A program made the position numbers and the translations under genes. The notes below the pieces were generated by a model. That model did no database searches and was not told the origin of the DNA. It saw only the letters and a list, made by a program, of their open reading frames with translations. Of a stretch of DNA of 32,000 bases, positions 1,229-19,774 are shown one piece after another (positions within the stretch are counted from its first letter, which is position 1; the number at the start of each line of letters is the position of its first letter). The stretch is from Candidatus Kuenenia stuttgartensis. Lineage in GTDB: Bacteria; Planctomycetota; Brocadiia; Brocadiales; Brocadiaceae. The stretch spans positions 3,360,001 through 3,392,000 of the forward strand of contig NZ_LT934425.1 in the NCBI RefSeq assembly GCF_900232105.1, in the 5' to 3' direction.

Positions 1229-2374
1229 TTAAGTAAGCATAGACGAATATAGCGCTACATGCTGAAGTCCGATATTATCCCAGGAAAAACACTTTCCCAA
1301 CTCCATGGCGTTATCTGAGATTTTATTTCTCAGGACGGGGTCATGGAACAGTTTTAAAATGACATCGGACATGGCCTGATAATCGCCGATTGGCGTTAAA
1401 ATTACATTTTCCCAATTTTTTAATACCTCCGGGACATTTTCACCTATAGTGGTTACTACGGGGAGACCATGCCGAAGCGCAGTGAGAAATGTTCCCCGCC
1501 GCAAAGAGACTCCATCCTTAAATGGCAGAACGCAGGCCGTTGCATTCGTAAAATAAACAGATACCTGTTCAGGGGTACAATAGCCGGTAACCGTTATTGC
1601 ATGTTCAATGCCTAACTCTTTCATAACATGATGATCATCATCCGAAAGATAGGTTATCATTACCAATTTACATTTAACCCCATGTATGAGCAATTGTTTA
1701 AATGCATGGAATAAAGTAATAACGTCTTTTGACTTTGTGGCAAAACCAAAATAAACGATGTACGGTATTTCTGCTATGCGCCTGCTTGAAACAATGTTAG
1801 GAACCGGCTCAATGTTGGCGCCAATCGGGATGACCGTATATCGTCCTTTAAGCCAGGGAAACCACTTTAAAACGGCTGATGCTTCACGCTTGTCAGGGAA
1901 TATAATCTTATTTGAAAGGAGCAAGAAAAAGATCATTCCAATCTTGCGAAACTTATGTGCAATGCTAAATTCATGGATTGTAGCTATTCTACATAATTTG
2001 GGAAAGATCGCCCAACAAATAAGGGGAAGAAAATTGGGCAACAGAAACCGCCGATATTCCCGCGTAGGATACTGGATATGGATGATGTCCGGTTTCATTG
2101 CCTTCAGGAATCGAACAAATCGAAATGTATTATACAATTGCCAGGATTTAACGACTTTGCATACAGTTATTGAAGGCTGAGGGGGCTTGATTTCAGGCAG
2201 ATCAGTTGTCAGTACAGAAACGTGTATCCCTTGTCTGGCTAACTCCTGCGACAATCTTGCGGTATAATCGCCTACACCGCATGGCGCATCAGGAAAGCTT
2301 CCGGTGATCATAGCCACTTTGTAAGCCTTGGATTTTGTAGCAGATGTATGAGAATTATTTACCACTAAAGACAT
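1229..2374 (-). CDS. GT-B fold glycosyltransferase (GT4-like)
   Basis: N-terminus KVAMITGSFPDAPCGVGDYTARLSQELARQGIHV. C-terminal half has LPFKDGVSLRRGTFLTALRHGLPVVTT, in the position of the E-x7-E region. Confidence 0.8.
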   Translation of the reverse strand: MSLVVNNSHTSATKSKAYKVAMITGSFPDAPCGVGDYTARLSQELARQGIHVSVLTTDLPEIKPPQPSITVCKVVKSWQLYNTFRFVRFLKAMKPDIIHIQYPTREYRRFLLPNFLPLICWAIFPKLCRIATIHEFSIAHKFRKIGMIFFLLLSNKIIFPDKREASAVLKWFPWLKGRYTVIPIGANIEPVPNIVSSRRIAEIPYIVYFGFATKSKDVITLFHAFKQLLIHGVKCKLVMITYLSDDDHHVMKELGIEHAITVTGYCTPEQVSVYFTNATACVLPFKDGVSLRRGTFLTALRHGLPVVTTIGENVPEVLKNWENVILTPIGDYQAMSDVILKLFHDPVLRNKISDNAMELGKCFSWDNIGLQHVALYSSMLT

Positions 2375-2401
2375 AGCTATTCCTGTAAATCTGTTTATAA
2401 C

Positions 2402-3409
2402 TTAAAAACATAATTTTAATACCTTTCCGTAGCCGGATAGTTTTTCCGCTGCCGTTTTTGCATTTGCAGGGTACAGTGTCAGCCAAAGAATAATGCGAAG
2501 CAGTGATCTTGAGAATAGTATCATCTTCAGAAAAATCAACTGGTGTGGCATGTGTTTTCTGAAATAATAAAAGAGGCTTTTGTGATAGTGGATGATTTTT
2601 TCTGCATTATAAAGTTCAGGGCTGCTTGCCCCGCCAAAGTGTATGAGTCTGGCCCCGGGCAGAAGGTATATCTCATACCCGGCATTTCTCAGCCGTAGGC
2701 ACAGGTCTGTTTCTTCAAAAAAGAGGAAATAATTGCTGTCAAAATTTCCCGCTCTATCGAGTGCTTCTCTGCGTACAAAGAGGCACGACCCCATAGTCCA
2801 GTCAACCTTCAATACTTTTGAACGGTCGATATGGCTCATCTTATGCAACCCAAAAAAACGGCTGTTTGGGAAGAGACGATCAAGGAAAAATGATTCACTC
2901 AGAATATTTTTAAGATTGGGAAAGGTATTGCCGCTCAACTGGAGTGTTCCGTCAGGATTAAGTAGCGTGGGGCCAATTGCACCTGCTTCCTGATGTTTTT
3001 CCATGAATGCCAACAGGCTTTTCGTCATGCCTGGAATCACTTCTGTATCGGGGTTTAAAAAGAGGACATACTCAGAGCATGATTTTTGCAGCGCCGTGTT
3101 GCACGCCTGCGCAAAACCATTATTGGTTTTGTTTTCGATAAGAATTATCTCCGGAAATTGTGTTTTGATATACGATACGGTTTGGTCGGAGGATGCATTG
3201 TCCACGATGATGATTGAATGAGAAAAAGCGCTGAGATCGCTTTTAAGGCTTTTCAGGCAATTAGCTATCCATGAATACGCATTCCACGTTACGATAATAA
3301 CAGAGATTTTACCTGTATGCTGTTGTTCAGGAGTAATATCTTTTTCCATAGAGATTGTTGACCAATAAGGGGCGAGGTGTGACGGATTATTTTTCAGTGA
3401 TAGTATCAT
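2402..3409 (-). CDS. GT-A fold glycosyltransferase (GT2 family)
   Basis: ISVIIVTWNA...IIIVDNASSDQT...NNGFAQACN...YVLFLNPDTEV are the GT2 core motifs. An alternative ATG at 3349 would remove the 23-nt overlap with the upstream gene. Confidence 0.8.
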   Translation of the reverse strand: MILSLKNNPSHLAPYWSTISMEKDITPEQQHTGKISVIIVTWNAYSWIANCLKSLKSDLSAFSHSIIIVDNASSDQTVSYIKTQFPEIILIENKTNNGFAQACNTALQKSCSEYVLFLNPDTEVIPGMTKSLLAFMEKHQEAGAIGPTLLNPDGTLQLSGNTFPNLKNILSESFFLDRLFPNSRFFGLHKMSHIDRSKVLKVDWTMGSCLFVRREALDRAGNFDSNYFLFFEETDLCLRLRNAGYEIYLLPGARLIHFGGASSPELYNAEKIIHYHKSLFYYFRKHMPHQLIFLKMILFSRSLLRIILWLTLYPANAKTAAEKLSGYGKVLKLCF

Positions 3410-4262
3410 AGCCTAGTTTTTTCATGATATCTTCTTCCTTTATGTGCCGGTAAATTTCCAGTAGGGCGCTGTCCTTTATAAAGGTAAATTTATTCCCGGA
3501 TAACACGTTTTTTGAAACGGCATTTATTAATGGAGCATCAGCGGTCAGGCCGATAAAGCGTACAATTTTGCCAAGGGTGTCCGCCGGATTGTCCAGAAAT
3601 GTTTCATATCGTACATGGAGTATGTTTCCATTCCATTCCTCTTCTAAGGAAAGCGCTTTTTGTACATAAACCCTCCACAATTGAATCCCTTCATAAATAT
3701 TCTGAAGCCTTACGGAGTCCTGGTAGAAAGCCTTTCCTAATACCAAACGTTCTTTAAAAAAACACTTCCAGTTATGCTTAAAATTATTTTGAATCTCAAT
3801 TTCTCTTTTTCTTGCGCTGTTTGCAACGTCAAGGGGATTTCTGTAAATATGCAATAGCTTTGGATGGGGGAAGATATCTTTCCAGATATCAATGGTAAAG
3901 GTGTTTCTTGGGTCTTTCCATCCCCATGGAAAATCAATATGCCGGATGTCGCCATAGCGCAAAAATTTTCCAAAACCTAAATATTCAAACCTTCGCATAC
4001 CCTTCAGGTGCTGCTTTAGCACGTGAAGAACCCTCTCCTTAAAGACGGCATTTATAAAGGTGAAATTATGCGGATTATCCCATGTGGCATTTGCCTGGCG
4101 CAGCAGCCAGTCGTTTAATTTGAAAAAGAACAAAGATTCATCATTTTCCTGTTTTTTTGCGCCGATAAATAGTCCCAGTTGTTCCAGCAGTGAAGCAAGC
4201 ATTGTGGTGCCGGAACGGTGCATACCCATGATTATTACTGGTTGAAGAGCGGTTTTATTCAT
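3387..4262 (-). CDS. sulfotransferase
   Basis: 5'-PSB P-loop-like motif GMHRSGTTML at the N-terminus. 3'-PB-like motif IYRNPLDVANS. Confidence 0.8.
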   Translation of the reverse strand: MNKTALQPVIIMGMHRSGTTMLASLLEQLGLFIGAKKQENDESLFFFKLNDWLLRQANATWDNPHNFTFINAVFKERVLHVLKQHLKGMRRFEYLGFGKFLRYGDIRHIDFPWGWKDPRNTFTIDIWKDIFPHPKLLHIYRNPLDVANSARKREIEIQNNFKHNWKCFFKERLVLGKAFYQDSVRLQNIYEGIQLWRVYVQKALSLEEEWNGNILHVRYETFLDNPADTLGKIVRFIGLTADAPLINAVSKNVLSGNKFTFIKDSALLEIYRHIKEEDIMKKLGYDTITEK

Positions 4263-5263
4263 TATTTTAATTTCAATACTTTTTCAAACACCAACAAATG
4301 TTCTTTTGCGCTTTTTTGCCATGAAAAATGTTGCGCGTGGTCCAAGCCCTTTTTTCTTAATGCATCTTGTAAGGAAACATCTTCTCTCAAACGCTGCATT
4401 GCGTGAGTAATATCATGTTCTGAACGCGGATTTACGAGAAGGGCGGCGTCGTTTGCTATTTCGGCGCATGCAGTGGCGTTTGATGTTATTACCGGACAGC
4501 CGCATGCCATTGCCTCTAAAACAGGCATGCCGAATGTTTCATGCAGAGAAGGGAATATAAATCCAATTGACCCTCTGTACCATTTTGCCAATTCATGGGG
4601 AGAGCACTTTTCCTGAATATGCCTTATTCCTTTAACGCGGATGGTTTTTGTGTATCCGGGCGCTATCATGATAAGTTCCGGCTTTCTGTTATTTGAAAGA
4701 TTTTCATATGCACGGATAATCCTGTCAACATTTTTTTTTGGACTATATTGTGAGACATGGAGAAAATAGGGTTCTGATACCTTTGCAATGTCGCCATTCT
4801 GGTGAAACGTCTCATGATCGACGCCATGGTAGATAGGGTGTATCTTTCCGCGAGGAAGCGCAAAGACATGCGACACTTCCCGTACGGCAAATTCTGAAAC
4901 GGTAATGATTGCGGAGGTCTTTTCCCGAAACCATTTCCACGCGGATAATGTTATACGGTTTTTCAATTTGCATCTTATTACCTGCAAAAAAGAGGTGTTA
5001 ATTTCATTCCATTTCATGGTAAACAGCGCCGCCCCGTGAACGGTTGCAACAATTGTTGTGCGCGAGTTTTTATATATATCAGGCGGAGTATGGTTTCCCG
5101 CCAGGCCAGGTTCCCAGATGATATCGCAATTTTCAGGGGCAGGGCCGGATTCCGTAAAGGGAGTGATCTCTACGCCAAGGATTGATAACTCCCTCCTGAT
5201 ACTTTCGCGGTATGTTTCCAGACTAAAAGGGATTTTATGGCGGGTAAGGACGGATATTTTCAT
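4262..5263 (-). CDS. GT-B fold glycosyltransferase (GT4 / Glycos_transf_1-like)
   Basis: PSLHETFGMPVLEAMACGCPVITSN is the classic GT4 C-terminal motif. Its stop overlaps the downstream sulfotransferase start by 1 nt. Confidence 0.85.
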   Translation of the reverse strand: MKISVLTRHKIPFSLETYRESIRRELSILGVEITPFTESGPAPENCDIIWEPGLAGNHTPPDIYKNSRTTIVATVHGAALFTMKWNEINTSFLQVIRCKLKNRITLSAWKWFREKTSAIITVSEFAVREVSHVFALPRGKIHPIYHGVDHETFHQNGDIAKVSEPYFLHVSQYSPKKNVDRIIRAYENLSNNRKPELIMIAPGYTKTIRVKGIRHIQEKCSPHELAKWYRGSIGFIFPSLHETFGMPVLEAMACGCPVITSNATACAEIANDAALLVNPRSEHDITHAMQRLREDVSLQDALRKKGLDHAQHFSWQKSAKEHLLVFEKVLKLK

Positions 5264-5278
5264 TTAATTCGCAAATGA

Positions 5279-6175
5279 TTAATGTGCACACCAATAGTTT
5301 AAATCTCTTCCCAGCATATCGCTCAACTGTTTGATTTCAGGTTTAAATTCATCCTGCAATCTCTTTCGTAATTCCGGTCTCATGGGAATACGGGATTCGT
5401 ACCGGATATTGAAATTCCACATGCCCTTTCTCATTCTGCTGCGAATTGCGTGGGGTATTAATCTTCTTGACATATTCAGTAAAAAGGGAGGGGGGTTTTG
5501 CAGTAAATTTCTTAAAAAAACGCTTTTTGCGCGTTTGTTTGGGTTAATCAATTTTGTATCATTGCTGATATCTTCATTCACCCCCAAAAAGCGGAAGGTA
5601 TCCTGTAAGGATGTTTGGGGATTATTCTTTATATCGTCAAAAATAATGAATTGAATGGCTTTCTTATCAAATATTTCAAAATATCGTTTTATCTGTTGCG
5701 TGTATTTTGCCGTTTCACGATATAAAAGACCTTCCACAGGATAAGCGTTTTTCGGTAAGAATAACCCTTTTTTCCTCAAATCCTCTTTTCTAAGGGCATC
5801 TTCAAAATCAATAATATCCTCGCATCCATTATACAGGTATTGACTGTGTAAGGAGTATATCATATCGACGGGATTTCTAAGCATAATGATAATTTGCGCC
5901 GAAGGGTAAAAAGCCTTTATCTCACGCGCCGCCTGTTTTGAATAAAGATACCATACGGACGCCTCTCCTATTCTCCTTTCATTTTCCGCGTTTTGAAAAA
6001 AAGACAGATAGGTTGTTGTGTCTCTGACAAAATCAGGATGATATATATCCGTCCCGAAATGATGCAATTCCTTTCTCTCCGGCATGAAGATTTCAGGGTG
6101 GTTTTTAAGGTGGCTATATAAAAATGTCGTCCCGCATTTTGGTGCGCCCACGATAAAAAAATCAGGTTGTTTCAT
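5279..6175 (-). CDS. sulfotransferase (Sulfotransfer_1-like)
   Basis: FFIVGAPKCGTTFLYSHL (5'-PSB) and IIMLRNPVDMIYSLHS (3'-PB). Confidence 0.85.
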   Translation of the reverse strand: MKQPDFFIVGAPKCGTTFLYSHLKNHPEIFMPERKELHHFGTDIYHPDFVRDTTTYLSFFQNAENERRIGEASVWYLYSKQAAREIKAFYPSAQIIIMLRNPVDMIYSLHSQYLYNGCEDIIDFEDALRKEDLRKKGLFLPKNAYPVEGLLYRETAKYTQQIKRYFEIFDKKAIQFIIFDDIKNNPQTSLQDTFRFLGVNEDISNDTKLINPNKRAKSVFLRNLLQNPPPFLLNMSRRLIPHAIRSRMRKGMWNFNIRYESRIPMRPELRKRLQDEFKPEIKQLSDMLGRDLNYWCAH

Positions 6176-6190
6176 AATGAATAAAGGCTT

Positions 6191-8044
6191 TTAAAAATCA
6201 TCATCGTCCAGGTCGTCATCAAGGTCGAAGTCATCGGCTCCTTTTTCAGTGGTTCTGTTATATTCCGGCATTTGTATTTCTTTGATGGCGTCCTGATTCC
6301 TTCTAAACCATTCTATTGACCCCAAACCTATAATTTCGCCATGCCCCATTGCCGCTATAACCTCTTCCCCGTAATTGCCTGCAGCGACATAGTCTTCAAA
6401 GAAGACGATTGTTGTTATTTTATCGGAACAGTGGTTAAGCATATAATTTCCTGCGCTATCCGGCAAGGTTCTTAACCCCTTTTCCGCAATCATTATCCAC
6501 TGACAATTTGATTGCAGCGCATTAAGTAATGCCAGCGAAAATTTCAGGCACGGGTCTATCCTTCTCCAAATATCAGGCGATAAAGATGTATCCAAGTTGT
6601 CAGGCATCTGTGCGTTGTATTTATCCCACAGGCCCATTTTTGTTAAATCTTTTTGTAAATTATCGGTGGTGTATTTTTCTGAGAAACCCAGGGATTCCCG
6701 TAAAGAACGGTTCGGGAGAAATTCATAATCCGCAGTTACAAACCACATGGATTCAAGGGCGGTTTTTGTCTTCTCCACAGAATGCCCGAGTATGCAATCG
6801 GTCAAAAATCCCAATGTATAACGATTTAATGTAACTGTGCTCAGGAGTCCCATACGGCTTCCTGCCTTTAGCTCCCCGTATTCAAGAGAACCTTCTATTG
6901 CAGGATGAGTAGTTGTTGGGACAATGATATAGCTTGCCGGTGGAACTGCCCCTGTCTTTGGGGTAATGACTGTAGCGCAGAGAAACTGGAAATATCTTCT
7001 GATTTGCGGATAAAGGCGGTTGATACCGGTTGCCTTTCTGTTTACCTGCCGCATATTTGTCAACATAAAGCGCAGCGCTATTAAATAGACAATTAATTCG
7101 CCCCACCCTTTGCCTTCAGAAATAATAGATCTGCCCATGATGAGCAATATTAAAAAAATCGCCAGTGCGAAGACAATGTTGCTGATTAACTGGCTATACT
7201 CCAGGGATCTCAACCTTCCCTCATAGGCATCGTGAAATTTCTTTATTGCCCCGGAGGAAAAAAGGGTTTTCCCCAGCCATTGTTCGTTTTCATGCGCTGA
7301 GACGTGCAATGTCTTTTGCCGCTGAATAATTTTTAAATATTCCCTGCTTGTTCCTTTTGCGAATTTTTCCAGTGATGACGAATTTCTCGCCGCATAAACA
7401 CTTACTTTATAAAGAAATATGGCAGAAATGCCCATAAGGGTAAAGTTTAAAAGTGTTAAAAGCGTGTTGATGTATAATAATGTAGCAATGGCGACCATGA
7501 AAGTGACCAAAGGTATGATCGTATCAAGTATCATCCATAATGCCCTGCTGCAGAACCTTGAATCCCTTCTTGCCAGCCGCACGATAATTTTGTCGTTGCT
7601 GAAATCCTGCTCAAGGGATGTTCCGATTTTAAAGCCTGAGCCGAAGTGCAGAAATATTCTCTTTGTACAAAATTCTTCGTATTTTCTCCTTAGTTTTAAG
7701 CCATTAGAGTTTGAAAAATAAATAGCCCATGCGGCGATCAACAGCGAGAACAGGATTGATAATCCGCATAAAATAAGAAATACATTAGATGTTCGTGCAT
7801 TGAATTCATAGTGGAGGAGTTTTATGGTGCTGCCGCTTTGCATAGCCTTGGCGTAATAAATTGCAAGGCCAATAGTCCATACCTGAAATGATACCCCGAT
7901 AAAATTGGTAAAAAGGATGAGGAATGATTCTTTCCTGAACCGCCAGATAGAATCTCCTATTAGCCATTTAAGCACCAAACGGTACTGATCGAAGGTTTTC
8001 ATAAAACCGTCGTATCGTGTCTTTAAAAAGCAGTAGATGTTCAT
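6191..8044 (-). CDS. ABC type-I-exporter-like membrane protein with degenerate nucleotide-binding domain and poly-acidic C-terminus
   Basis: The N-terminal half has about 6 hydrophobic helices. The C-terminal half aligns by eye to an ABC NBD, but Walker A is STVTLNRYT, the signature is LSPDI, Walker B is WIMIAE, and no H-loop His is present (FFEDY). It ends GADDFDLDDDLDDDDF. Confidence 0.6.
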   Translation of the reverse strand: MNIYCFLKTRYDGFMKTFDQYRLVLKWLIGDSIWRFRKESFLILFTNFIGVSFQVWTIGLAIYYAKAMQSGSTIKLLHYEFNARTSNVFLILCGLSILFSLLIAAWAIYFSNSNGLKLRRKYEEFCTKRIFLHFGSGFKIGTSLEQDFSNDKIIVRLARRDSRFCSRALWMILDTIIPLVTFMVAIATLLYINTLLTLLNFTLMGISAIFLYKVSVYAARNSSSLEKFAKGTSREYLKIIQRQKTLHVSAHENEQWLGKTLFSSGAIKKFHDAYEGRLRSLEYSQLISNIVFALAIFLILLIMGRSIISEGKGWGELIVYLIALRFMLTNMRQVNRKATGINRLYPQIRRYFQFLCATVITPKTGAVPPASYIIVPTTTHPAIEGSLEYGELKAGSRMGLLSTVTLNRYTLGFLTDCILGHSVEKTKTALESMWFVTADYEFLPNRSLRESLGFSEKYTTDNLQKDLTKMGLWDKYNAQMPDNLDTSLSPDIWRRIDPCLKFSLALLNALQSNCQWIMIAEKGLRTLPDSAGNYMLNHCSDKITTIVFFEDYVAAGNYGEEVIAAMGHGEIIGLGSIEWFRRNQDAIKEIQMPEYNRTTEKGADDFDLDDDLDDDDF

Positions 8045-8096
8045 AGTGTAATTGAATTAAGGAATGCAGAGAAAATGGTGAAAGGGGGAGGGCGTT

Positions 8097-8882
8097 TTAT
8101 TTTTTATATCCCCAGAAATCGCAGTAGTGCGGCATTAAGTCGATAATTTTGGTTGCCTCGGCAACTAACCTTTTATCCGGCTCCTGCTGCCAGCGATGTA
8201 CCCTTTTGTCAGTGATGATGTTGCCATGCAGTTCATATTCATCCTTCCGTTTAACGTTTGCCGCATTAAAACTCCCGATGTCTCCGGTATCTGGGATTTC
8301 ACTTTCCAGGAAGGTCTTTATTTTTTGATATATTTCTGTATTTGTACATAATTCTTCATATTTTACCTTTATGCAGTTTGCCTGTTCAGCCATTTCCAAT
8401 TGTCTGTTAAACTCATTGTTAAGGTGTGTCGATAATGTTTCCGGCGTTAATTCTTTTTTCCAGCTTCCCTTCCCCTGTTTTTTCCGGTAATAAAGGGAAA
8501 CATATATATCCCGTGGGTCTCTTGCCGTCAGGATAAACCGTATATCTTCAAATACCCGATAATAATTTTGCCAGCCGCGGTGATGGATTTCTTTTACTCC
8601 CAACTGATGGATGTGAGGGGCAAGGTTTGGCATTATTTGGCTTTTCAAGGCATTGATAAGGGAATTATCTTCTTCATCCATATATTTTTGTTTAAATGCC
8701 TTGAGATCAATCCCCAATTGTAAAAACAATGTATAATCATTTTCCTGTATGCGGAATTTGTTTTTCCCCAAATTCGGTTCCCGAAGAATAAAAGAATAAG
8801 GCAGCATGGTTAATGCCTCGCTGAGTACAGTGCCGCCTGTTCTTCTTAGTGAGGCGATGTAAATAAAGGGTTTTTTTTGCAT
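8097..8882 (-). CDS. sulfotransferase-family protein
   Basis: IYIASLRRTGGTVLSEAL (5'-PSB-like) and ILTARDPRDIYVSLY (3'-PB-like). Confidence 0.7.
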   Translation of the reverse strand: MQKKPFIYIASLRRTGGTVLSEALTMLPYSFILREPNLGKNKFRIQENDYTLFLQLGIDLKAFKQKYMDEEDNSLINALKSQIMPNLAPHIHQLGVKEIHHRGWQNYYRVFEDIRFILTARDPRDIYVSLYYRKKQGKGSWKKELTPETLSTHLNNEFNRQLEMAEQANCIKVKYEELCTNTEIYQKIKTFLESEIPDTGDIGSFNAANVKRKDEYELHGNIITDKRVHRWQQEPDKRLVAEATKIIDLMPHYCDFWGYKK

Positions 8883-8910
8883 AAAATTATATCTTTCTGG
8901 GTAACAGTTT

Positions 8911-8982
8911 ACCCACCCCTAAATCCCCTCCCAGGAGGGGACTTCTTGTATTCCACTCCTGGGAGGGGATTTAGGGGTGGGT
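8911..8982. repeat. perfect 27-bp-stem palindromic element (C-run/G-run family) with T7 on the plus side
   Basis: acccacccctaaatcccctcccaggag (8911..8937) is the exact reverse complement of 8956..8982. The loop is 18 nt. ttttttt follows on the plus strand only. Confidence 0.9.
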
Positions 8983-9043
8983 TTTTTTCAAATACCGGGA
9001 CAATCCGGAAGGGGTGAACTGTTGCCTTCCTGAAAATTATACA

Positions 9044-10078
9044 TCAACTACATGCCAATAATCCATGCACACATACGGCTATATCCTGAGAATATTGAAA
9101 AAGGTCGAGAAGCCTTCCTTTTTCAATATCAATTTCCGCAATAGTCGCAGGAGAAAATCCCACAAGGATACGGGATTGACCGGCAGGGCAAAGTCCGCGC
9201 AAGAATAACGGGCTTTTAATCTCATGCTCCATGTTTAAAAAACGTGAAAGAAAGTGAATGCCTCTGAAAAAAGAAGATGACTTTGCCTTAGAAGATTTGA
9301 TTGCAAGTTTGTATAGGGCATTTATTTCAGGAAAGTCTAATAAAGATAAAGCCTTGATCAATGTGCCGTTCTGTGTATAGACCATAACCCTTTTTCCCTG
9401 GGTGTCATTAATTATTATTTTATCTTCAAAAAACACAAGATTATGGCATCCTTTTATAGAGGGGTCTTCCAGTACAAGGCGATTTGTTGTCGTATTGTAA
9501 ACGGCGCCAAACCGGTTAAAGAGGACGTATAACTCATTATTATGCACTGCAACTGCATTTAAATGCGTATGGCTTGGCTGTCTGGCGGGCAAGACTTTAA
9601 GCCACAGCAGTCTGTTGTCGGTTGTTTTATCAATTTTCAACGGTGAGAGGGAAAAATGCTTCTGCAGGGTTGGACTTTCTCTTGCCCACCAGGATTTGAT
9701 GGAATTTCCTTGTGTATCAATGCCAATCACGCAATCTATTGCGGTGGAGGTAAGCCAAATTACGTTATCATGATGAAAAATCTCATGCAATCCGACAAAC
9801 AAATTATTTGATATCTTCCCTTTTGGCGTAAGGGAGAGGTCAAAAAGAATCAGGCTATGGTAGGTTGCGACATAGATTGTATCATTAATCTTAACGATGC
9901 CCCTTCCGCCCCTTGAGTTGCCCCGTGGGTTAGCATCGTCTTTTTCTGTAATAAGCGGATCGGTAGGCGATAACGTTGTTTTCCTCTTTATTTTTTTGGT
10001 TGCCCAGTCAATGCTAACCAATTCCCCGCCCTGTGCAATAGGCCCCTGTCGTACCACCGTGCTAAAATAAACTTCCAT
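9044..10078 (-). CDS. hypothetical protein, repetitive beta-strand (propeller-like) pattern; possibly TIGR03032/DUF4915-like
   Basis: Long intact 344-aa ORF inside the glycan cluster with repeated short hydrophobic strand/turn periodicity. FLRGLCPAGQSRILVGFS and HNLVFFEDKIIINDTQG are reminiscent of that family, from memory only. Confidence 0.4.
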   Translation of the reverse strand: MEVYFSTVVRQGPIAQGGELVSIDWATKKIKRKTTLSPTDPLITEKDDANPRGNSRGGRGIVKINDTIYVATYHSLILFDLSLTPKGKISNNLFVGLHEIFHHDNVIWLTSTAIDCVIGIDTQGNSIKSWWARESPTLQKHFSLSPLKIDKTTDNRLLWLKVLPARQPSHTHLNAVAVHNNELYVLFNRFGAVYNTTTNRLVLEDPSIKGCHNLVFFEDKIIINDTQGKRVMVYTQNGTLIKALSLLDFPEINALYKLAIKSSKAKSSSFFRGIHFLSRFLNMEHEIKSPLFLRGLCPAGQSRILVGFSPATIAEIDIEKGRLLDLFQYSQDIAVCVHGLLACS

Positions 10079-10122
10079 TCACTTATATCTCCGCAAAAAA
10101 GTATTTAAACCAAAACAACATT

Positions 10123-11280
10123 TTACAGGCCAAAGGCGTCTTTTGCATGTTTTATCGTATTTTCCCATGAAAAGATTTTTTGTGAGGCCACCGTATTTCT
10201 TGCATATGCTTCGACCGTTTCCGGATCGGATAATTCCGCTATTGCACGTGTAAGGTCTTCAACATCAGGGTCAAAGTAGGGAATACCGGAAGCGGTGTAG
10301 CCTGTCTTGTGTGATTTAACGAGGATGCCATTATACCGGTCTTGTATCACCTCATTATGGGGCGGGATGTTGTTGGTGATTGTGGGTAATCCGAAAGAGA
10401 CTGCCTCATAAAAATGCTGTCCTAACCCTTCCCACCTGCTTGGTGCGAGGCACACATGGCATGATGAAAACAAATCATAATATTCCTTTGCGGATAAATC
10501 TTCTTTAATGTGTATAATTCTTTTATCAGTAAAATCATCAATATGTTCCGTATTTGACCGCTCCCCCTGCGCCTTGATAATGAGCCTTATATTGGGATTT
10601 TGTACTTGTGTAAAGGCCTTGACTGTTTTTCGTATGGGCTTTCTGCCGCCCTGAAAGCCGCCAGGAAAATAAAAATAAATGGCGTCTCCCCGTTTTTTCG
10701 ACACGGAATTAAGAAGTTCCGGATGGCATCCCCACGGCACCCACGGGCTGTCAACGCCAAAGTCGGCGTATCGTGTGCATTCGCATTTGTTTAAAGAATA
10801 AATTATGTCATATGCGTCGATGGCGCCTTTCATGGGGCGTATGCCTGAATTACTTAATAAACACCTTCCTGCCATTTTCCACATAAATGGTTTCAACGGT
10901 ATTTTTTTATAACCGGTTAGGTGTTGTATCCCGAAACTTTCCCAGATAAATCTTCCGATGGTCTTTATCCCCATTGCGCGTAACGCCGCAATTTCCTTAA
11001 ATTGCAAATTTGAATCAAAGAATATCAGATCGAGTGAATTGTGAACAGCCCATTCTTTGTATTCTTTTAAGGGGATTACAAAATTAGAGGCATGGGCAAC
11101 GCCTTCCTGTTCCCATACATCTGATTTGGCAATGAATTTTGGCAGGGCGTCATTATCCCTTGTGGGCCTTGCAAGCACAAAGGTCTTGTGTCCAAGTTCA
11201 TCTAATATAGAGCGCAGATAACGTGAAACAGTAGCCTGTCCTCTGTTTAACCAGGTGCTGACTATGCCGATATGCATCAT
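10123..11280 (-). CDS. GT-B fold glycosyltransferase, paralog A
   Basis: MMHIGIVSTWLNRGQATVSRYLRS...CLAPSRWEGLGQHFYEAVSFGLPTITNN. Start moved to ATG 11280 by alignment with paralog B. The tracked start at 11355 adds 25 unaligned residues. Confidence 0.75.
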   Translation of the reverse strand: MMHIGIVSTWLNRGQATVSRYLRSILDELGHKTFVLARPTRDNDALPKFIAKSDVWEQEGVAHASNFVIPLKEYKEWAVHNSLDLIFFDSNLQFKEIAALRAMGIKTIGRFIWESFGIQHLTGYKKIPLKPFMWKMAGRCLLSNSGIRPMKGAIDAYDIIYSLNKCECTRYADFGVDSPWVPWGCHPELLNSVSKKRGDAIYFYFPGGFQGGRKPIRKTVKAFTQVQNPNIRLIIKAQGERSNTEHIDDFTDKRIIHIKEDLSAKEYYDLFSSCHVCLAPSRWEGLGQHFYEAVSFGLPTITNNIPPHNEVIQDRYNGILVKSHKTGYTASGIPYFDPDVEDLTRAIAELSDPETVEAYARNTVASQKIFSWENTIKHAKDAFGL

Positions 11281-11411
11281 TTTGCCTTTCTTTAATTTTA
11301 CTATCGTCAAACAAATCGTAAAAGCTGAGGATACGTTAATGCCGGCGGTGTGCAATGAGTTCTCTTACTTTCGGATGTTTTATTTTTTATATGACTGTGC
11401 CGCAGTTGTTC

Positions 11412-11846
11412 TCAAGAGGTTTTTAATATGAATTTCAAAATATAATTGCAATATTTTGCATATTGATTTATAGCATCTCCGACTGTTTTATAGATAATAC
11501 TTTTATCTAAATTGTTATATTCATGAACAATTGCATTTCTAAATCCGGCGCTTTTCGAGATTTCTTCGGCAAAATCCCTCTGCAAAACATTCAAGTCAGC
11601 AAGGAGTAAGAATGTGTCTCTATATGTCTTTGGCGCTTCCATATCCGGTCTGGCCAATTCAGAAATAAGGTGCTCATTAATATCGATAGCCCTGCCAATG
11701 ATCTCCATTAAGATATTTTTTAGCGCCGCATACTTTATAAAATCTTCCGCAATCTGGCTAATTGTAAAATCATAGAATATCTTTAATCTTTCCAAATCAC
11801 GGGTAATTAAATTCAGTTTTTCTTTTAAAAATTCTTTATCAATCAT
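11412..11846 (-). CDS. hepT: HepT (DUF86, HEPN-domain) RNase toxin
   Basis: Contains the R-x4-H-x-Y HEPN motif (FRNAIVHEYNNLD). Sits directly downstream of an MNT gene. Confidence 0.85.
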   Translation of the reverse strand: MIDKEFLKEKLNLITRDLERLKIFYDFTISQIAEDFIKYAALKNILMEIIGRAIDINEHLISELARPDMEAPKTYRDTFLLLADLNVLQRDFAEEISKSAGFRNAIVHEYNNLDKSIIYKTVGDAINQYAKYCNYILKFILKTS

Positions 11847-11854
11847 CTGAAATA

Positions 11855-12259
11855 CTAAACGCCTAAATTTTGCAGCCGTTTCTTAATAAGCACTTCTTTT
11901 AACCTTAAAAGGTCTTGGCTATCATAATAATCGCGGAAGGCATAGGATTTAAAAGAATTATAATCATAACTCTTACCGTAAAGCAGAACTCCTTTACTCA
12001 TTACCTGATAACGAAACAGGGAATTGGTATTATGAAGGGATTTTACATCTATTTCCTTAACTTTAAATATTTCAGCAAATTCGTTATTCAAATCAATCAG
12101 ATTTTCAAAGGTGATGGGTCTTGTTCCCAAAACAGCAATATCAATATCACTTTCTTTACAAGTTCGCCCGCTTGCATGAGAACCATAAAGTATAACTAAC
12201 AAGAGGTTGTATTTCCTGGCAATATGATCAATTTCAGGCTTTGACATTAAAATGTTCAT
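11855..12259 (-). CDS. mntA: MntA minimal nucleotidyltransferase antitoxin
   Basis: LYGSHASGRTCKESDIDIAVL matches the G-S-x(n)-D-x-D pol-beta NTase motif. Only 8 nt separate it from hepT. Confidence 0.85.
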   Translation of the reverse strand: MNILMSKPEIDHIARKYNLLLVILYGSHASGRTCKESDIDIAVLGTRPITFENLIDLNNEFAEIFKVKEIDVKSLHNTNSLFRYQVMSKGVLLYGKSYDYNSFKSYAFRDYYDSQDLLRLKEVLIKKRLQNLGV

Positions 12260-12278
12260 CAGTGGCCTCTCTCTCTCT

Positions 12279-13439
12279 TTATAATCTAAAAGTCTTTTTT
12301 ATATGTTCGGTGGTGGTATTCCATGAATATTTTTTTTGCAATTGTATCGTATTGTTTGAGAGTTCCGTTATTTTATTTACGTCAGACAGTTCCTCTATTG
12401 CCCTTGCAAGGTCATCCACATCAGGGTCGTAGATGGGTATTCCCGATTGTTTATAACCAATTTTTACCGATTTTACAAGCAGCCCATTCTTTCCGTCTTC
12501 AATGACTTCATTGTGAGGGGGGATGTTATTGGTGATTGTGGGCAATCCGAAGGAGATTGTTTCATAAAAATGTTGCCCTAAACCTTCCCATCTGCTTGGC
12601 GCCAAACATACATGACAGGAGGAGAATAAATTATAATATTCCTTTGCGGGCAGGTCTTTCACTATTTTTATGAGTCGTGTATCCGGGAAGTCTTCAATAT
12701 TCTCGGTCGTTGTCCTTGTTCCCTGTGCTTTAATAATCAGGCGAATGTCAGGATTTTTTACCTTCATAAAGGCTTCAACCGTCTTTCTCATCGGTTTTCT
12801 CGCCCCCTGAAAACCGCCCGGAAAGAAAAAATAAATAGCATCTTCACGTTTTTGCGGTTTTACTGCAAGTAGTTCCGGATGGCAGCCCCATTGGATCCAG
12901 GGGCTGTCAATCCCAAAGTCTTTGTATCGCGCCTGTTCACATTTTGTGAGAGAATAGACGATATCAAATGCCTCCTTTGCACCAATGACGTCCTTGTTGG
13001 TAAAGCACTCCCGCATATACCGGCAAAAAGCCTTCATATCCCTTGTCCGAAGGATTGTTTTAAGGCCTTTTGCATGTTTTTCTCCAAAACCTTCCCAGAC
13101 GAAACGGCCAAAGGTTTTAATGCCCTTTGACCGCAGATATTTAATCTTGTCATACTCATTGTTTTCATCAAAAAAAATGATCTGGATGGCATTTTTTTCT
13201 ATCCAGGAGAGATATTCTTCTAAGGGGATGAAAAAACGAGACGCCCTGGTAACGTCCCCCTGGTTCCATACGTCAGCCGTAGAGATAAAATTGGGCAAAT
13301 CATCGGTATCGCTTGTGGGGCGGGCAAGTACGAATGTGTGATGTCCCAAATTGTCAAAAACAGACCTGAGATAACGGGACACCGTGCTTTGTCCCCTATT
13401 CCACCAGGAGCTAACTATTCCTATGCTGAGTTTTTTCAT
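12279..13439 (-). CDS. GT-B fold glycosyltransferase, paralog B
   Basis: MKKLSIGIVSSWWNRGQSTVSRYLRS...CLAPSRWEGLGQHFYETISFGLPTITNN. ATG at 13439 forms an ATGA overlap with the stop of the upstream sulfotransferase. Confidence 0.75.
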   Translation of the reverse strand: MKKLSIGIVSSWWNRGQSTVSRYLRSVFDNLGHHTFVLARPTSDTDDLPNFISTADVWNQGDVTRASRFFIPLEEYLSWIEKNAIQIIFFDENNEYDKIKYLRSKGIKTFGRFVWEGFGEKHAKGLKTILRTRDMKAFCRYMRECFTNKDVIGAKEAFDIVYSLTKCEQARYKDFGIDSPWIQWGCHPELLAVKPQKREDAIYFFFPGGFQGARKPMRKTVEAFMKVKNPDIRLIIKAQGTRTTTENIEDFPDTRLIKIVKDLPAKEYYNLFSSCHVCLAPSRWEGLGQHFYETISFGLPTITNNIPPHNEVIEDGKNGLLVKSVKIGYKQSGIPIYDPDVDDLARAIEELSDVNKITELSNNTIQLQKKYSWNTTTEHIKKTFRL

Positions 13440-14392
13440 CGGCGAAAAAAATGGGTAAGGTTGTTGTACCATCGTTGCGTGTTCATAAGCTTAAGACAAT
13501 CGTGATATCCTGCCTGTTCAAGTGCTTCTCTCATATTGAGGAGGGTAAAACCTTTTCTCCAGTAATTACTGGATGGGGCAAATAGCGTTACCTTTTTTTT
13601 CACATGTTCTGTCGTCCATTGAAGAACGTTACCGGGTAATGTTCTTTCCATAAAATCATAGAGCAATTTCAGTGTTTCATGCGGTTCCGCTATTAAATCC
13701 TCATTGCGTAATAAAAGAAAATTTTTCCCGAATGTTTTCCTGCCTGCCTCGTGTGTTTGCTGAAAGGTATATTTCCAAATCATTAAAACCTTCAAATAGT
13801 CGTTGCAATTTTTCATATGGGCATATTCGGGTGTTTTTATCAATAATTTATAAAGTTCGTAACTTCCCCACGGATTCCTTTCGATGATGGTTTTGAAAAA
13901 GGTTTTTTTCGTAGAATACTTTTCTCTGTGTTTCTGTTCTCTGCCAAAAATATACGACGTGGTGATTGCACGCGGGTCCCGAACGATAAGGATGAGTTTT
14001 GAATCCGGGTCGATTCTCTTGAGTACCGGGATTTTGGTGTACATTCGTGTAAATTTAATAACGGTATCTTCAGAGCGGGAAATCAAATATTTTATGTAAT
14101 CAATGCAATATTGCGGTAAATCTCTTTCGAGTTCCAGGGAGGCGTCCCTTGGTGTGCCATAATTTAACAAATCGATGTCTTTTAATAAGGGGTATGTTTT
14201 TTGAAAATCTTCCCTGCATTTTCTGATCTTTTCAAAAAGATCAACATTTTGTATGCCGCTACCCCCTCCGTGTTTTGGAATTCTACCTGCGGCAAAAGGT
14301 TCATAATATAAATCAAGATTCTTGTCCTGACACAATATATCATAAACAATTGTTGTTCCTGACCGGCGCATTCCCTGTATAAAAACATTCAT
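13436..14392 (-). CDS. sulfotransferase
   Basis: MNVFIQGMRRSGTTIVYDIL (5'-PSB) and LILIVRDPRAITTSY (3'-PB-like). Confidence 0.8.
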   Translation of the reverse strand: MNVFIQGMRRSGTTIVYDILCQDKNLDLYYEPFAAGRIPKHGGGSGIQNVDLFEKIRKCREDFQKTYPLLKDIDLLNYGTPRDASLELERDLPQYCIDYIKYLISRSEDTVIKFTRMYTKIPVLKRIDPDSKLILIVRDPRAITTSYIFGREQKHREKYSTKKTFFKTIIERNPWGSYELYKLLIKTPEYAHMKNCNDYLKVLMIWKYTFQQTHEAGRKTFGKNFLLLRNEDLIAEPHETLKLLYDFMERTLPGNVLQWTTEHVKKKVTLFAPSSNYWRKGFTLLNMREALEQAGYHDCLKLMNTQRWYNNLTHFFRR

Positions 14393-14630: not shown

Positions 14631-15788
14631 TTACATAATTACCAGTTCCGCATGCAATGCGCCGGCTTTTTTAATGGCCTGGAATATCGAGATGAGGTCC
14701 CTTGGGGTTACGCCCAATACATTAAGTGCACGCGCAACGTCGGAAATAGAGACGCCTTCCTGCAGTACGGTCAATCTGCTTTTTTCTTCGCTTACCTGTA
14801 TATCCGTGCGTGCCATATCCCTTGTTTCACCTGCACCCAGCATATTTGGCTGTGAAACCTCCTTTTCTTCCTTGATCGTTATACTGAGGTTTCCATGGGC
14901 AACTGCAACCGTGGATATTCTTACATGCTGGTCTGCAACAATGGTGCCGGTGCGTTCATTAATAATTATCTTAGCGACGCTGTCGGTTTTAATGTAAAGT
15001 TCTTCCAGGGTAGAGATAAATTTTACTATAGTCTCATCGGACTGAAACCCCTGCGGAGGTCTTATATTGATAACCGCCGCATCAACCGCAACTGAAGAAT
15101 TTGGATAAATATTATTAATAAGCTCTGTTACCCTTGTGGAGGTGGTGAAATCAGGGTCTCTCAGCACAATATTCAGTGCCTGCCCCTTCAAAAAGGTGGT
15201 GTGAATCTCCTTTTCAACGATCGCTCCGTTTGAAATATGGGCGGTAGTGGATATGTTTTTCCTGACAGACTGTGCATCGCCTTTGATGCTGTAACCGCCT
15301 ACGGTAAGCGCGCCCTGAGCTACGGCATACACTTCATTATCAGCGCCCTGCAATGCGGTCTGAAGCAGCACGCCGCCTTCCAGACTTTTACAGTCACCAA
15401 TGGAAGAAAGCGTTATGTCCAGCTTATCGCCCGGCCTTGCAAATGCAGGGATATTCGTGGTGACCATGACCACCGCGGTGTTTTTGGAAAAGAAGTCTTT
15501 TTCATCCATTAGCACCCCCAGTTTTTCAAATATATTTACTGCCATTTGGCTGGTAAGTTTAAAGATTTGACTGTTATCGCCTGTTCCCTGAAGTCCGATA
15601 ACTATGCCATATCCGTAAAGCTGGTTTTCACGCACGCCCTGAACATACGCAATATCTTTAATTCTGACTGCGGCCTGTACGTGATGTACAAAGAGGCTTA
15701 TCAGTGTTGTGCCTGCGATAATAAAAGACGTTATAACACACTTCAACATAAACCTTATTGTAAACTGTTTTTTTCCCATAGCATTCAC
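14631..15788 (-). CDS. flgI: flagellar P-ring protein FlgI
   Basis: Signal peptide followed by RIKDIAYVQGVRENQLYGYGIVIGLQGTGD. C-terminus is ISDVARALNVLGVTPRDLISIFQAIKKAGALHAELVIM. Confidence 0.95.
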   Translation of the reverse strand: MNAMGKKQFTIRFMLKCVITSFIIAGTTLISLFVHHVQAAVRIKDIAYVQGVRENQLYGYGIVIGLQGTGDNSQIFKLTSQMAVNIFEKLGVLMDEKDFFSKNTAVVMVTTNIPAFARPGDKLDITLSSIGDCKSLEGGVLLQTALQGADNEVYAVAQGALTVGGYSIKGDAQSVRKNISTTAHISNGAIVEKEIHTTFLKGQALNIVLRDPDFTTSTRVTELINNIYPNSSVAVDAAVINIRPPQGFQSDETIVKFISTLEELYIKTDSVAKIIINERTGTIVADQHVRISTVAVAHGNLSITIKEEKEVSQPNMLGAGETRDMARTDIQVSEEKSRLTVLQEGVSISDVARALNVLGVTPRDLISIFQAIKKAGALHAELVIM

Positions 15789-15842
15789 CGTAAGTTGTTA
15801 ATGGATAATTTGTCTTTCTGTGTTTTATTAAATCTGTATAAT

Positions 15843-16142
15843 CGTAACACTTTAGTTTTTTGAAAAATTCCCGTTATAGAAAAAATACCATGTAGCCCCG
15901 TCAGGGGCGGTCTGTTTGTAGCGCAATAAAATTCAATAAGGTAAATAGCTCCGTAGGAGCGGCCTGTCCGTATTCAGGCAGACCTGTTTAATATGGATTT
16001 ACAAGAGACAGGTCGCTCCTAATTGCAGAGACAGGTTTCAAACCTGTCTCTACGATCTGTTATAATATTCTATTTTGCTACAAACAGGCTGCTCCTACGG
16101 AGCTTATAGGTAATACATTTTTCAAAAAACTAAAGTGTTACG
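15843..16142. mobile_element. 300-bp MITE-like element with perfect 26-bp terminal inverted repeats and a 6-bp TATAAT target-site duplication
   Basis: cgtaacactttagttttttgaaaaat (15843..15868) is the exact reverse complement of 16117..16142. TATAAT flanks both ends (15837..15842 and 16143..16148). The interior has nested palindromes, for example gagacaggtttcaaacctgtctc, and contains no ORF. Confidence 0.8.
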
Positions 16143-16199
16143 TATAATCTGTGGCTTTTTTTATTAATTTAGGATTTTAAATCGTGCTTCGTAACTAGC

Positions 16200-16820
16200 T
16201 TAAAATGGCGATACAAATTCCTTCAGGCGATAAAACCAGCCCCGTTTGGCGGCATTTGTCAAAAAACCTTTGCCTTCAAGGCTTATACTGGCATTTGCAA
16301 TCGAGCTTGATTGAATTACATTATCCACACTTACATCGATTGGCCGTATGATCCCTGATACCTTTATATTGTATTTTTCCTTATTAATATCCACCTCTCT
16401 GTTCCCTTCAATAATAAGATTCCCATTTGATAATATTTCCGTTACCACAGCGGTGATTTCCAATTGAAGGCTGCGGCTGCTGTCGTATTGCCCCGTACCG
16501 CCAAAAGTGTGCTCAGTTTGTGATTTTACATTGGGTAAATAGTCTTGCAATGCCCCTAATTTCTTGGAAAAATCTGAAGCGTCCACATTTATGTTATGGC
16601 TTGTGCTTTGGTCTGCGCTGGAATCTTCTTTTCCGGTAATTGCCGTTGACTCATTTATCGTGACCGTCACAATGTCGCCGATACGCATTGCCCTGTTGTC
16701 ATTATAAAGGTTTGTATTTAACGTAATGCGTTTTTGCCAGAGAGATTCTCCCATAGCATCGGTTACGAATGCAATACAAGTGAAACATGCAATAAGATAG
16801 GGAATAGTTTTCTTTTTCAT
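16200..16820 (-). CDS. flgH: flagellar L-ring lipoprotein FlgH
   Basis: N-terminal signal sequence with Cys. SLWQ...LYNDNRAMRIGDIVTVTINE and GNLIIEGNREV are FlgH hallmarks. Confidence 0.9.
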   Translation of the reverse strand: MKKKTIPYLIACFTCIAFVTDAMGESLWQKRITLNTNLYNDNRAMRIGDIVTVTINESTAITGKEDSSADQSTSHNINVDASDFSKKLGALQDYLPNVKSQTEHTFGGTGQYDSSRSLQLEITAVVTEILSNGNLIIEGNREVDINKEKYNIKVSGIIRPIDVSVDNVIQSSSIANASISLEGKGFLTNAAKRGWFYRLKEFVSPF

Positions 16821-16870
16821 AAGAGACTCCGCCAGTGGTTGTTCTGATTTAAAATATTTTGACCAAGTAG

Positions 16871-16890
16871 GGGCGAATAATTATTCGCCC
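16871..16890. repeat. perfect 20-bp palindrome gggcgaataattattcgccc in the flgA-flgH junction
   Basis: Self-complementary. It overlaps the flgA stop codon by 1 nt. Confidence 0.8.
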
Positions 16891-17909: not shown

Positions 17910-17926
17910 TTTTCGCCCCTCATTCT

Positions 17927-18715: not shown

Positions 18716-18735
18716 TTTATATTCTCCTTAGATTT

Positions 18736-19464: not shown

Positions 19465-19739
19465 TCTATCTATCCTCCATGGTTGCAAAAAAAAAGGATT
19501 AAAAAACTCTGTTGCTGCATTAAGGCAGCAATCCCAATACCAAATGCAGGAATAAATAAAATGATGCATGATATGTGCGCTTAAGGGGTGTATTTGCAAA
19601 TGGTTACAATATCGTTGCACCGGGTATGGAATAATACATTTTCAATATGCTGTGAAAGAAGGGGGCAATTATTTCCTGTCTGGGGTGAATAAATTTTCCT
19701 GGTGTGAGAGGGTATTGTTGAAAAAACTTACAGGGAAAA

Positions 19740-19774
19740 GGCTAATGGCTAATGGCTAATGGCTCATGGCTCAT
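19740..19774. repeat. heptamer tandem array (GGCTMAT x5)
   Basis: ggctaat ggctaat ggctaat ggctcat ggctcat, followed by degenerate atggtta/atggttt units to about 19793. Confidence 0.9.

Follow-up and report, generated by a model that had tools for sequence, protein, structure and literature searches.

A type I ABC exporter homolog with a degenerate nucleotide site, encoded in a glycosyltransferase-sulfotransferase gene cluster of Kuenenia, belongs to a family sharing the same degeneracy

In this work, we have analysed a membrane protein of 617 amino acids (aa), here called pABC, that is encoded in a 32,000-nucleotide stretch of the genome of Candidatus Kuenenia stuttgartensis (contig NZ_LT934425.1, positions 3,360,001 to 3,392,000; hereafter the window). 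Our results show that pABC is a full-length homolog of the type I ATP-binding cassette (ABC) half-exporters of the MsbA/PglK/BmrA type, that degeneracy of the nucleotide-site motifs and an acidic C-terminal tail extend throughout the family to which it belongs, and that the genes of this family lie mostly in clusters of glycosyltransferase (GT) and sulfotransferase genes. Textbooks present ABC exporters as the prime example of transport powered by ATP. The exceptions known to us are of two kinds: in heterodimers, CFTR and SUR one or more ATP sites still work, and SbmA has wholly discarded the nucleotide-binding domain (NBD). The fold and ancestry of pABC are known ground, namely those of the type I ABC exporter lineage. 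What appears to be new, as judged from the sequences, is that the ATP site has been lost throughout the family while the fold has been kept, and that the family is linked to what are probably sulfated-glycan clusters; no description of the family, or of fully degenerate homodimeric ABC exporters, was found in the literature searched.

The pABC gene is a real gene and not a chance open reading frame (ORF), since a sequence search found a Candidatus Kuenenia stuttgartiensis protein with 100% identity and 1241 relatives were found at an expectation value (E) <=1e-3. Public gene calls start at M1 (617 aa, UniProt Q1PUH2) or at M15 (603 aa), and the N-terminal extension is kept in relatives, as seen in an alignment of 33 homologs. 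The protein is variously named 'unknown protein' (Q1PUH2), 'putative membrane protein', 'ABC transporter ATP-binding protein' and 'ABC-type multidrug transport system fused ATPase/permease subunit', and the 'ATPase' part of this automated annotation is probably wrong.

A first reading of this DNA, made from its letters and translations only (the sequence-only reading), had proposed for pABC the layout of a half-size type I ABC exporter with an NBD-related C-terminal domain. Like MsbA, PglK and BmrA (PF00664 plus PF00005), which are homodimeric exporters of the type I (type IV fold) class and flip lipids or lipid-linked glycans, pABC has a six-helix transmembrane domain (TMD) followed by an NBD in about 600 aa, and it differs from them in lying below the Pfam and NCBIfam thresholds. 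Pfam gave no match to pABC even at E<=10, with ABC_membrane, ABC_tran and SbmA_BacA all unmatched, and the only NCBIfam model to respond, one for a bacteriocin exporter, matched the TMD weakly (E 7e-4) and stayed far under its cut-off; searched against Pfam one by one, 33 close relatives returned noise and a single ABC_membrane match (E 0.013). A family profile built from 33 homologs, searched against PDB sequences, had BmrA as its top match (E 1e-3), with the TMD-TMD and NBD-NBD stretches collinear. Profile-profile alignment with hhalign, for which the reference was an alignment of MsbA, MdlA, MdlB, CydC and CydD of E. coli MG1655, gave for the full length Prob 97.0 and E 1.2e-10 with 511 collinear columns across both domains. 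When the two domains were aligned separately, using a 161-sequence family alignment, the NBD matched the exporter NBDs with Prob 97.0 and E 1.2e-10 (189 columns) and the TMD matched the E. coli exporter TMDs with Prob 94.4 and E 8.6e-8, while both cross-domain alignments, which served as negative controls, gave Prob 0.1.

Structure prediction led to the same result. The AlphaFold2 (AF2) model of full-length pABC (mean predicted local distance difference test, pLDDT, 75; predicted template modelling score, pTM, 0.64) shows six long helices (residues 37-70, 87-136, 152-192, 194-245, 266-310 and 314-359) and then an alpha/beta domain; five of the six transmembrane (TM) helices are strongly hydrophobic, and TM6 bears a conserved Arg. 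With this model, the best 50 Foldseek matches in the PDB are all type I exporters (E ~1e-13, ~600 aligned columns), MsbA, ABCB10, ABCB7, CydDC, TM287/288, Atm1, PCAT1, HlyB, BmrA and TmrAB being among them. A separate model of residues 361-617 (pLDDT 87.7, pTM 0.84) matched solely the NBDs of ABC exporters, including the isolated NBD structures 4q7l and 7ndf (E 4e-9 to 8e-8, TM-score ~0.5-0.58). Since profile-profile alignments and structure matches agree, the C-terminal domain of pABC is a true NBD homolog, and the proposed exporter layout stands.

The register of the nucleotide-site motifs was taken from the hhalign alignment with MsbA, with a HMMER alignment with BmrA as a second opinion (Table 1). 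The Walker A segment of MsbA, G376-RSGSG-K382-S383, pairs with S402-TVTLN-R408-Y409 in pABC: all the glycines are gone, the Lys is replaced by R408 and the Mg-coordinating Ser by Y409, and the A-loop aromatic region of MsbA falls in a gap, so it is absent from pABC. The Q-loop glutamine of MsbA (Q424) pairs with D439 in hhalign or A438 in HMMER, and the H-loop His (H537) with E550 in hhalign or F549 in HMMER. The MsbA signature, L481-SGG-Q485, pairs with I496-DPC-L500, which is followed by a conserved K501 matching MsbA R486. In Walker B, MsbA D505 pairs with A520, so that the Asp is lost, and the position of the catalytic Glu is kept (MsbA E506, pABC E521). The D-loop of MsbA (SALD) falls at about R525-TLP528, an ambiguous placement, with a D-loop-like L-x-D one residue further on.

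These alignments bear out most of what had been read by eye, that is, STVTLNRYT at Walker A, VTAD at the Q-loop, WIMIAE with its Asp lost at Walker B, and FFEDY, with no His, at the H-loop. The signature had been placed 8 residues out of register, at LSPDI followed by WRRI: LSGGQ pairs with IDPCL, and LSPDI pairs with MsbA 'IGE-N' before the signature, with the conserved W493 next to it. The statement that every catalytic motif is degenerate holds for Walker A, the Q-loop, the signature, the Walker B Asp and the H-loop, but not for the catalytic Glu, and the loss of the Walker B Asp, which is an Ala in Kuenenia, does not extend to most relatives, where a Glu or an Asp is found. In P-loop NTPases, canonical Mg-NTP binding is incompatible with the loss of the Walker A Ser/Thr and the glycine-rich loop. 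Since pABC has lost both, we strongly infer that it is unable to hydrolyse ATP by the normal mechanism, and it is likely to be unable to bind any nucleotide. The joint failure of P-loop, signature, Q-loop and H-loop sets pABC apart from functional ABC transporters.

Table 1. Features of pABC, its gene cluster and the remainder of the window (positions are those of the window; residues are those of pABC)
Feature	Position	Strand	Basis or remark
pABC, complete ORF	6191..8044	minus	617 aa + stop; sub-feature coordinates re-translated
TMD, residues 1-360	6965..8044	minus	hhalign, AF2, Foldseek
R325, conserved TM6 Arg	7070..7072	minus	Alignment to MsbA and family conservation
TM6-to-NBD linker, N342-R-L-Y-P-Q-I-R-R-Y-F-Q-F354	6983..7021	minus	Family conservation
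NBD-like domain, residues 361-592	6269..6964	minus	hhalign, AF2, Foldseek
Walker A equivalent, S402-T-V-T-L-N-R408-Y409-T410	6815..6841	minus	hhalign
Q-loop equivalent, V436-T-A-D439	6728..6739	minus	hhalign, HMMER
LSPDI, residues 488-492, upstream of the signature position	6569..6583	minus	hhalign
Signature (LSGGQ) equivalent, I496-D-P-C-L500	6545..6559	minus	hhalign, HMMER
Walker B equivalent, W516-I-M-I-A520-E521	6482..6499	minus	hhalign
H-loop equivalent, F548-F-E-D-Y552	6389..6403	minus	hhalign, HMMER
Acidic C-terminal tail, residues 593-617	6194..6268	minus	AF2 disorder, charge
Operon-like cluster around pABC	1229..14392	minus	Tightly packed; Pfam scans
344-aa protein	9044-10078	minus	
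HepT/MNT pair	11412-12259	minus	
Gap (161 bp)	8883-9043		
GC-rich inverted repeats	8924-8941, 8952-8981	plus	Terminator-like on this strand
HicA/HicB-like pair	717-1215	minus	
HigA-like helix-turn-helix protein	318-680	plus	
Flagellar operon	14631-25124	minus	
Group II intron	25685-27201	minus	
Reverse transcriptase/maturase ORF of the intron	25903-27201		RVT_1 + GIIM
Intron catalytic domain	25685-25837		Rfam Intron_gpII

The same losses are found in the relatives of pABC. A profile search over 1.84 billion cluster representatives (50% identity) retrieved the 1241 family members mentioned above, of which 924 have E<=1e-10 and 487 E<=1e-30; the members inspected are the best 150 of the 1241, all with E<1e-77, and the column counts given here refer to 161 near-full-length members. 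At the Walker A Lys, 136 members have Arg and 7 have Lys; at the Ser/Thr, 113 have Tyr, and glycines are absent from the motif. At the Walker B Asp, Glu is found in 69 members, Asp in 61 and Ala in 9, at the catalytic Glu there is Glu in 81 and Ala in 27, the signature columns are variable with no LSGGQ, there is no Gln in the Q-loop column and no conserved His in the H-loop column. As for an intact Walker A or Walker B elsewhere in the sequence, a regular-expression scan of 183 family proteins found none at the homologous position; neither [AG]x4GK[ST] nor LSGGQ occurred there, and hhhhDE was present in the C-terminal half of 17 of these proteins. In five E. coli exporters, used as controls for the patterns, Walker A was detected in 5/5, LSGG[QE] in 3/5 and hhhhDE in 4/5. 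Compared with MsbA, PglK and BmrA, the family has no Walker A, no Q-loop Gln, no LSGGQ and no H-loop His, does not conserve the Walker B Asp, and carries a C-terminal tail, disordered and poly-acidic, that is conserved; both the degeneracy and the tail persist in this survey of homologs.

The highest conservation in the family is found in the TMD and in the linker between TM6 and the NBD, where many positions exceed 80%. The most conserved residues there are Q54, Y64, R84, Y122, R129, D161, E226, R277, G304, W314, Y320, R325, R343 (a linker residue conserved at 96%), Y345, P346, R350 and F354. In the NBD-like domain the most conserved residues are G395, R408 and W579; R408 (84-87%) is second only to G395, and N407, Y409 and T410 are conserved too. 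On one putative head-to-tail NBD face the conserved residues are R408, Y409 and E521, and on the opposite one W493, an often acidic loop and K501. This conservation of many TMD, linker and NBD positions indicates that the family is under strong purifying selection and rules out a decaying pseudogene. Its members come from Brocadiales and other Planctomycetota, Nitrospinae, Thermodesulfovibrionia, Nitrospiraceae and cyanobacteria (Coleofasciculus, Leptolyngbya).

Could pABC still be driven by ATP? This would need either a heterodimer with a canonical half-transporter encoded elsewhere or a non-canonical hydrolysis using R408, with E521 as the base, and we regard it as very improbable. In its favour, the position of the catalytic Glu is kept and an Arg stands at the position of the Lys, and heterodimeric exporters with one degenerate site are common (PMC7756269). 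TM287/288, BmrCD, TmrAB, CydDC and CFTR/ABCC, like pABC, carry non-consensus catalytic residues in a normal NBD fold. In heterodimers of the TM287/288 type, however, the one degenerate composite site has an intact Walker A and binds ATP, while the consensus site works, and known degenerate sites in general still bind ATP and need an intact Walker A to do so (PMC7756269). The Walker A of pABC has neither glycines nor the Mg-binding Ser/Thr and, with its signature face degenerate too, pABC would leave a heterodimer with two defective composite sites. Because both faces are affected, pABC would form no consensus ATP site with any partner. Nor is there a linked partner, as there would be in TM287/288-type systems: at none of the 27 distinct pABC loci examined (the window counted as one) is there an adjacent type I ABC exporter gene, and no second pABC paralog lies alongside pABC in them. 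Unannotated neighbours of ~600-680 aa, considered as a shared partner, proved unrelated to pABC and to one another, and at one locus (L021) an unrelated NBD-like ORF lies 4 kb from the pABC homolog. The pairing with an unlinked canonical half-transporter, which the sequence-only reading had offered as one of three possibilities beside an ATP-independent flippase and a scaffold, thus appears disfavoured. Its statement that pABC is the sole ABC-like gene in the cluster agrees with our scans, as ABC_tran was found in none of the 26 (out of 32) other window ORFs of >=120 aa that were scanned against Pfam.

In the window, pABC lies within an operon-like cluster that also contains five glycosyltransferase genes (GT4/GT2/GT1-type), four sulfotransferase genes, one gene for a conserved unknown protein and a HepT/MNT pair. 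It is the only polytopic membrane protein of the cluster; the other ten cluster proteins have no TM segments and are basic (pI 8.9-9.4, net charge +5 to +15). PglK is likewise encoded in a glycan biosynthesis cluster. Among the 27 loci, 16 have a sulfotransferase inside the fetched flanks, and in 4 others (L001, L028, L031 and one more) there are genes of glycan synthesis or sugar modification, coding for glycosyltransferases, an acyltransferase or an epimerase. A pair made of a GT and a sulfotransferase, represented in the window by a GT (12279-13472 / 10123-11355) and a sulfotransferase (13436-14392), is kept with pABC across phyla (E 1e-96 to 1e-130), with relatives (L023:1267-3343, L025:10976-13065) in a Leptolyngbya cyanobacterium and a distant Planctomycetota metagenome-assembled genome (MAG). 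Because of this conservation, the pABC-GT-sulfotransferase module appears to move horizontally between phyla as a unit.

The TMD of pABC is far more basic than those of the five E. coli exporters, with a net charge of +25 (family median +19) compared with +3 to +10. R325 in TM6, an Arg in 85% of the 161 members, lies within one residue of MsbA R296 in the hhalign register and is comparable to PglK R302/R309. MsbA R296 is one of the basic 'ring' residues that bind the lipid A phosphates (PMC8660845). The conserved R84, R277 and R325, together with the very basic TMD, may form a putative site for an anionic head group.

We propose that pABC may be an ATP-independent exporter or flippase for the anionic lipid-linked glycan of its cluster, a reading to which we give a good chance, though one short of even. 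Under this proposal pABC, most likely as a homodimer since each locus has a single copy of the gene, would be the membrane step of the cluster pathway without canonical use of ATP. Working at the cytoplasmic face, the soluble basic GTs and sulfotransferases would use a lipid carrier to assemble an anionic (sulfated) glycan, and the unusually basic cavity, R325 included, would take the anionic head group to the outer leaflet with no need of ATP. The driving force may be a facilitated flipping pulled by downstream consumption, or a coupling to the proton gradient. The dead NBD would be kept as a module for dimerisation and coupling, and the conserved residues on both of its faces suggest that, at the NBD dimer interface, side chains could replace ATP as 'glue', or that the site could bind another anionic ligand.

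Three precedents make ATP-independent transport by pABC plausible. PglK is a lipid-linked oligosaccharide (LLO) flippase that uses cavity arginines, including two in TM6, for the LLO pyrophosphate, and its flipping has been proposed to need just outward-facing states (PMC5395944). SbmA has the TMD fold of ABC exporters and is driven by protons (PMC8442886, PMC13316013). MsbA without its NBD still transports drugs, and lipid flopping by MsbA can require a proton gradient (PMC8660845). More broadly, SbmA/BacA (SLiPT), MsbA-MD and LmrA-MD share with our proposal the exporter TMD fold used without ATP hydrolysis and are a mechanistic precedent for it. SbmA itself has no NBD and imports peptides, whereas pABC keeps a folded NBD-like domain and a tail, in a context of glycan synthesis. 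The role proposed for pABC also resembles that of Wzx and the MOP-family flippases, that is, ATP-independent LLO transfer at the inner membrane; this analogy is functional only, as the fold and ancestry of these flippases are entirely unlike those of pABC.

What, then, is the acidic tail for? The C-terminus quoted by the sequence-only reading, GADDFDLDDDLDDDDF, is present in full. The tail, which ends ...DDFDLDDDLDDDDF, has a net charge of -10 and is predicted to be disordered (pLDDT <50), and the NBD-like domain before it has a net charge of -7. In 138 of the 161 family members >=6 of the last 16 residues are D/E, and in 101 the last residue is hydrophobic (I, M, L or F). The C-terminus of bacterial single-stranded DNA-binding proteins (SSB; ...DDDIPF) is an acidic docking tail that ends in a hydrophobic residue, and the pABC tail is alike in being a disordered Asp/Glu run ending in F, I, L or M, with no homology implied. 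In the transport mechanism proposed here, the tail would be a flexible peptide for docking or gating, acting on the basic enzymes of the cluster or on the basic cavity, or alternatively a mimic of the polyanionic product at that cavity; mimicry of a substrate or the binding of cations would be equally conceivable roles.

The same features would fit a scaffold, a non-transporting dimeric membrane anchor whose NBD and tail recruit the soluble basic GTs and sulfotransferases, with export carried out by another protein. The opposite charges of the recruiting parts and of all ten other cluster proteins, none with a TM segment, the conservation and disorder of a tail that resembles docking tails such as that of SSB, and the co-occurrence of a distant relative (L029) with a canonical ABC-2 exporter pair all argue for this possibility. 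We nevertheless consider it unlikely, because conservation peaks in the TM helices, especially at the TM6 Arg, and in the TM6-NBD linker, and not in the tail or on the NBD surface, and such a TM-centred conservation is the pattern expected of a translocation pathway. Besides, the Kuenenia cluster has no other candidate exporter, Wzx included, and basic charge is commonplace among peripheral GT4 enzymes.

The remodelled P-loop opens a further possibility, that of an exporter gated or driven by a ligand. Here the P-loop (S/T-P-x-x-L-N-R-Y-T) and the Glu would bind an anionic ligand in place of MgATP, such as 3'-phosphoadenosine 5'-phosphosulfate (PAPS) or 3'-phosphoadenosine 5'-phosphate (PAP), a sulfated sugar, a nucleotide sugar or a free nucleotide, and NBD closure and export would be coupled to sulfation status or donor availability. 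The conservation of R408, N407, Y409 and T410, and of W493 and K501 on the signature face, is consistent with such a site, and the proximal clade is tightly tied to sulfotransferases. Against this, pABC has no recognisable PAPS or nucleotide motif and no Pfam or NCBIfam domain, and distant members keep the motif yet have no sulfotransferase nearby; the idea is purely inferential and in our view rather improbable.

Several observations weigh against ATP-independent glycan export, the reading that we prefer. The AF2 model is only moderately confident over the TMD (pLDDT about 62-85, leaving aside a low-confidence loop at 136-150), and part of the positive charge of the TMD may come from long cytoplasmic helix extensions and not from the cavity. 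The retention of a folded 230-residue NBD with R408 and a frequent Glu suggests that the site still binds something, and the degenerate site may bind a nucleotide or an anion in a non-canonical way. Within the window, the Kuenenia cluster has no initiating phosphoglycosyltransferase, polymerase or ligase, and for this reason the lipid-linked intermediate is only assumed. Finally, the distant L029 member has its canonical ABC-2 (Wzm/Wzt- or TagGH-like) exporter pair 4 kb away, and another member (L019) is encoded inside a type IV pilus operon that has neither a GT nor a sulfotransferase gene in its vicinity; because of these two contexts, the role of the family need not be export of the cluster product.

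We can also formulate a wider hypothesis, in which a widespread 'pseudo-ABC' family moves anionic, often sulfated lipid-linked glycans without ATP. In it, R408, Y409 and E521, facing W493, the acidic loop and K501, would replace ATP or respond to a ligand related to sulfation, the soluble GTs and sulfotransferases would be drawn together into a membrane metabolon by an SSB-like acidic tail, and the whole would hold for at least 900 clusters (50% identity) from Planctomycetota, Nitrospinota/Nitrospirota and cyanobacteria as well as many metagenomic lineages. With all of these elements taken jointly, we regard the hypothesis as doubtful.

Some features of the loci deserve mention in their own right. 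In L029 the exporter pair (L029:4644-6218) consists of ABC2_membrane and ABC_tran proteins, and the cluster contains diacetamido-sugar genes (GFO_IDH_MocA, hexapeptide acetyltransferase, DegT aminotransferase) and GT4 genes. In L019, a Nitrospiraceae chromosome, the order over L019:6459-17405 is pilM-pilN-pilO-pilP, a 262-aa N-terminal fragment of PilQ (AMIN + N0) and then the pABC homolog, followed by a pfkB kinase and a hybrid histidine kinase and then by a full-length pilQ secretin; this arrangement resembles an insertion in which the beginning of pilQ was either duplicated or split. In the window, the conserved unknown protein of 344 aa is basic and is kept beside pABC in the Brocadiales loci L008-L010, L014 and L015. 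It has no Pfam, NCBIfam or PDB sequence match, with a marginal NHL/beta-propeller hint (E 0.7), and is a candidate partner of pABC; PDB sequence searches with this protein, one sulfotransferase and one GT were uninformative. Its gene is separated from the sulfotransferase gene upstream of pABC by a gap with inverted repeats (Table 1).

The HepT (RNase toxin)/MNT (nucleotidyltransferase antitoxin) pair stands in the middle of the GT/sulfotransferase operon and is shared with a 94%-identical Kuenenia MAG (L008), while it was undetected in the 81-82% relatives L009 and L010. At the cluster end there are a HicA/HicB-like pair and a HigA-like protein. On the other side, the flagellar operon, coding for basal body and hook (flgI, flgH, flgA, flgG, flgF, a PIN-domain gene, flgE, flgD and fliK), borders the cluster directly on its upstream side and is oriented alike, and the group II intron, with an Intron_gpII catalytic-domain match of 44 bits, over the gathering score, sits just upstream of fliK/flgD/flgE. 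A role in flagellar glycosylation, considered with flgI directly upstream, was rejected, as the adjacency exists only in near-identical Kuenenia genomes (L008) and not in L009 or L010 (81-82% identity), and the flagellar operon and the glycan cluster are probably functionally unlinked. The toxin-antitoxin genes, the group II intron and IS66 elements beside one relative (L027) suggest mobile or plastic DNA as the setting of the glycan module.

What does this family mean for our view of ABC exporters? The pABC family would be a natural experiment on the roles of the NBD besides the use of ATP, namely dimerisation, coupling and ligand sensing, and it could reveal if passive flipping of lipid-linked glycans, or flipping by a proton gradient, is within the reach of the exporter fold. 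Were the wider 'pseudo-ABC' hypothesis true, nature would offer in this family an intermediate form, with primary ABC exporters on one side and secondary transporters like SbmA on the other. The family may also mark a conserved sulfated-glycan gene module in anammox bacteria and cyanobacteria, in both of which sulfated extracellular polymers are of ecological and biotechnological interest.

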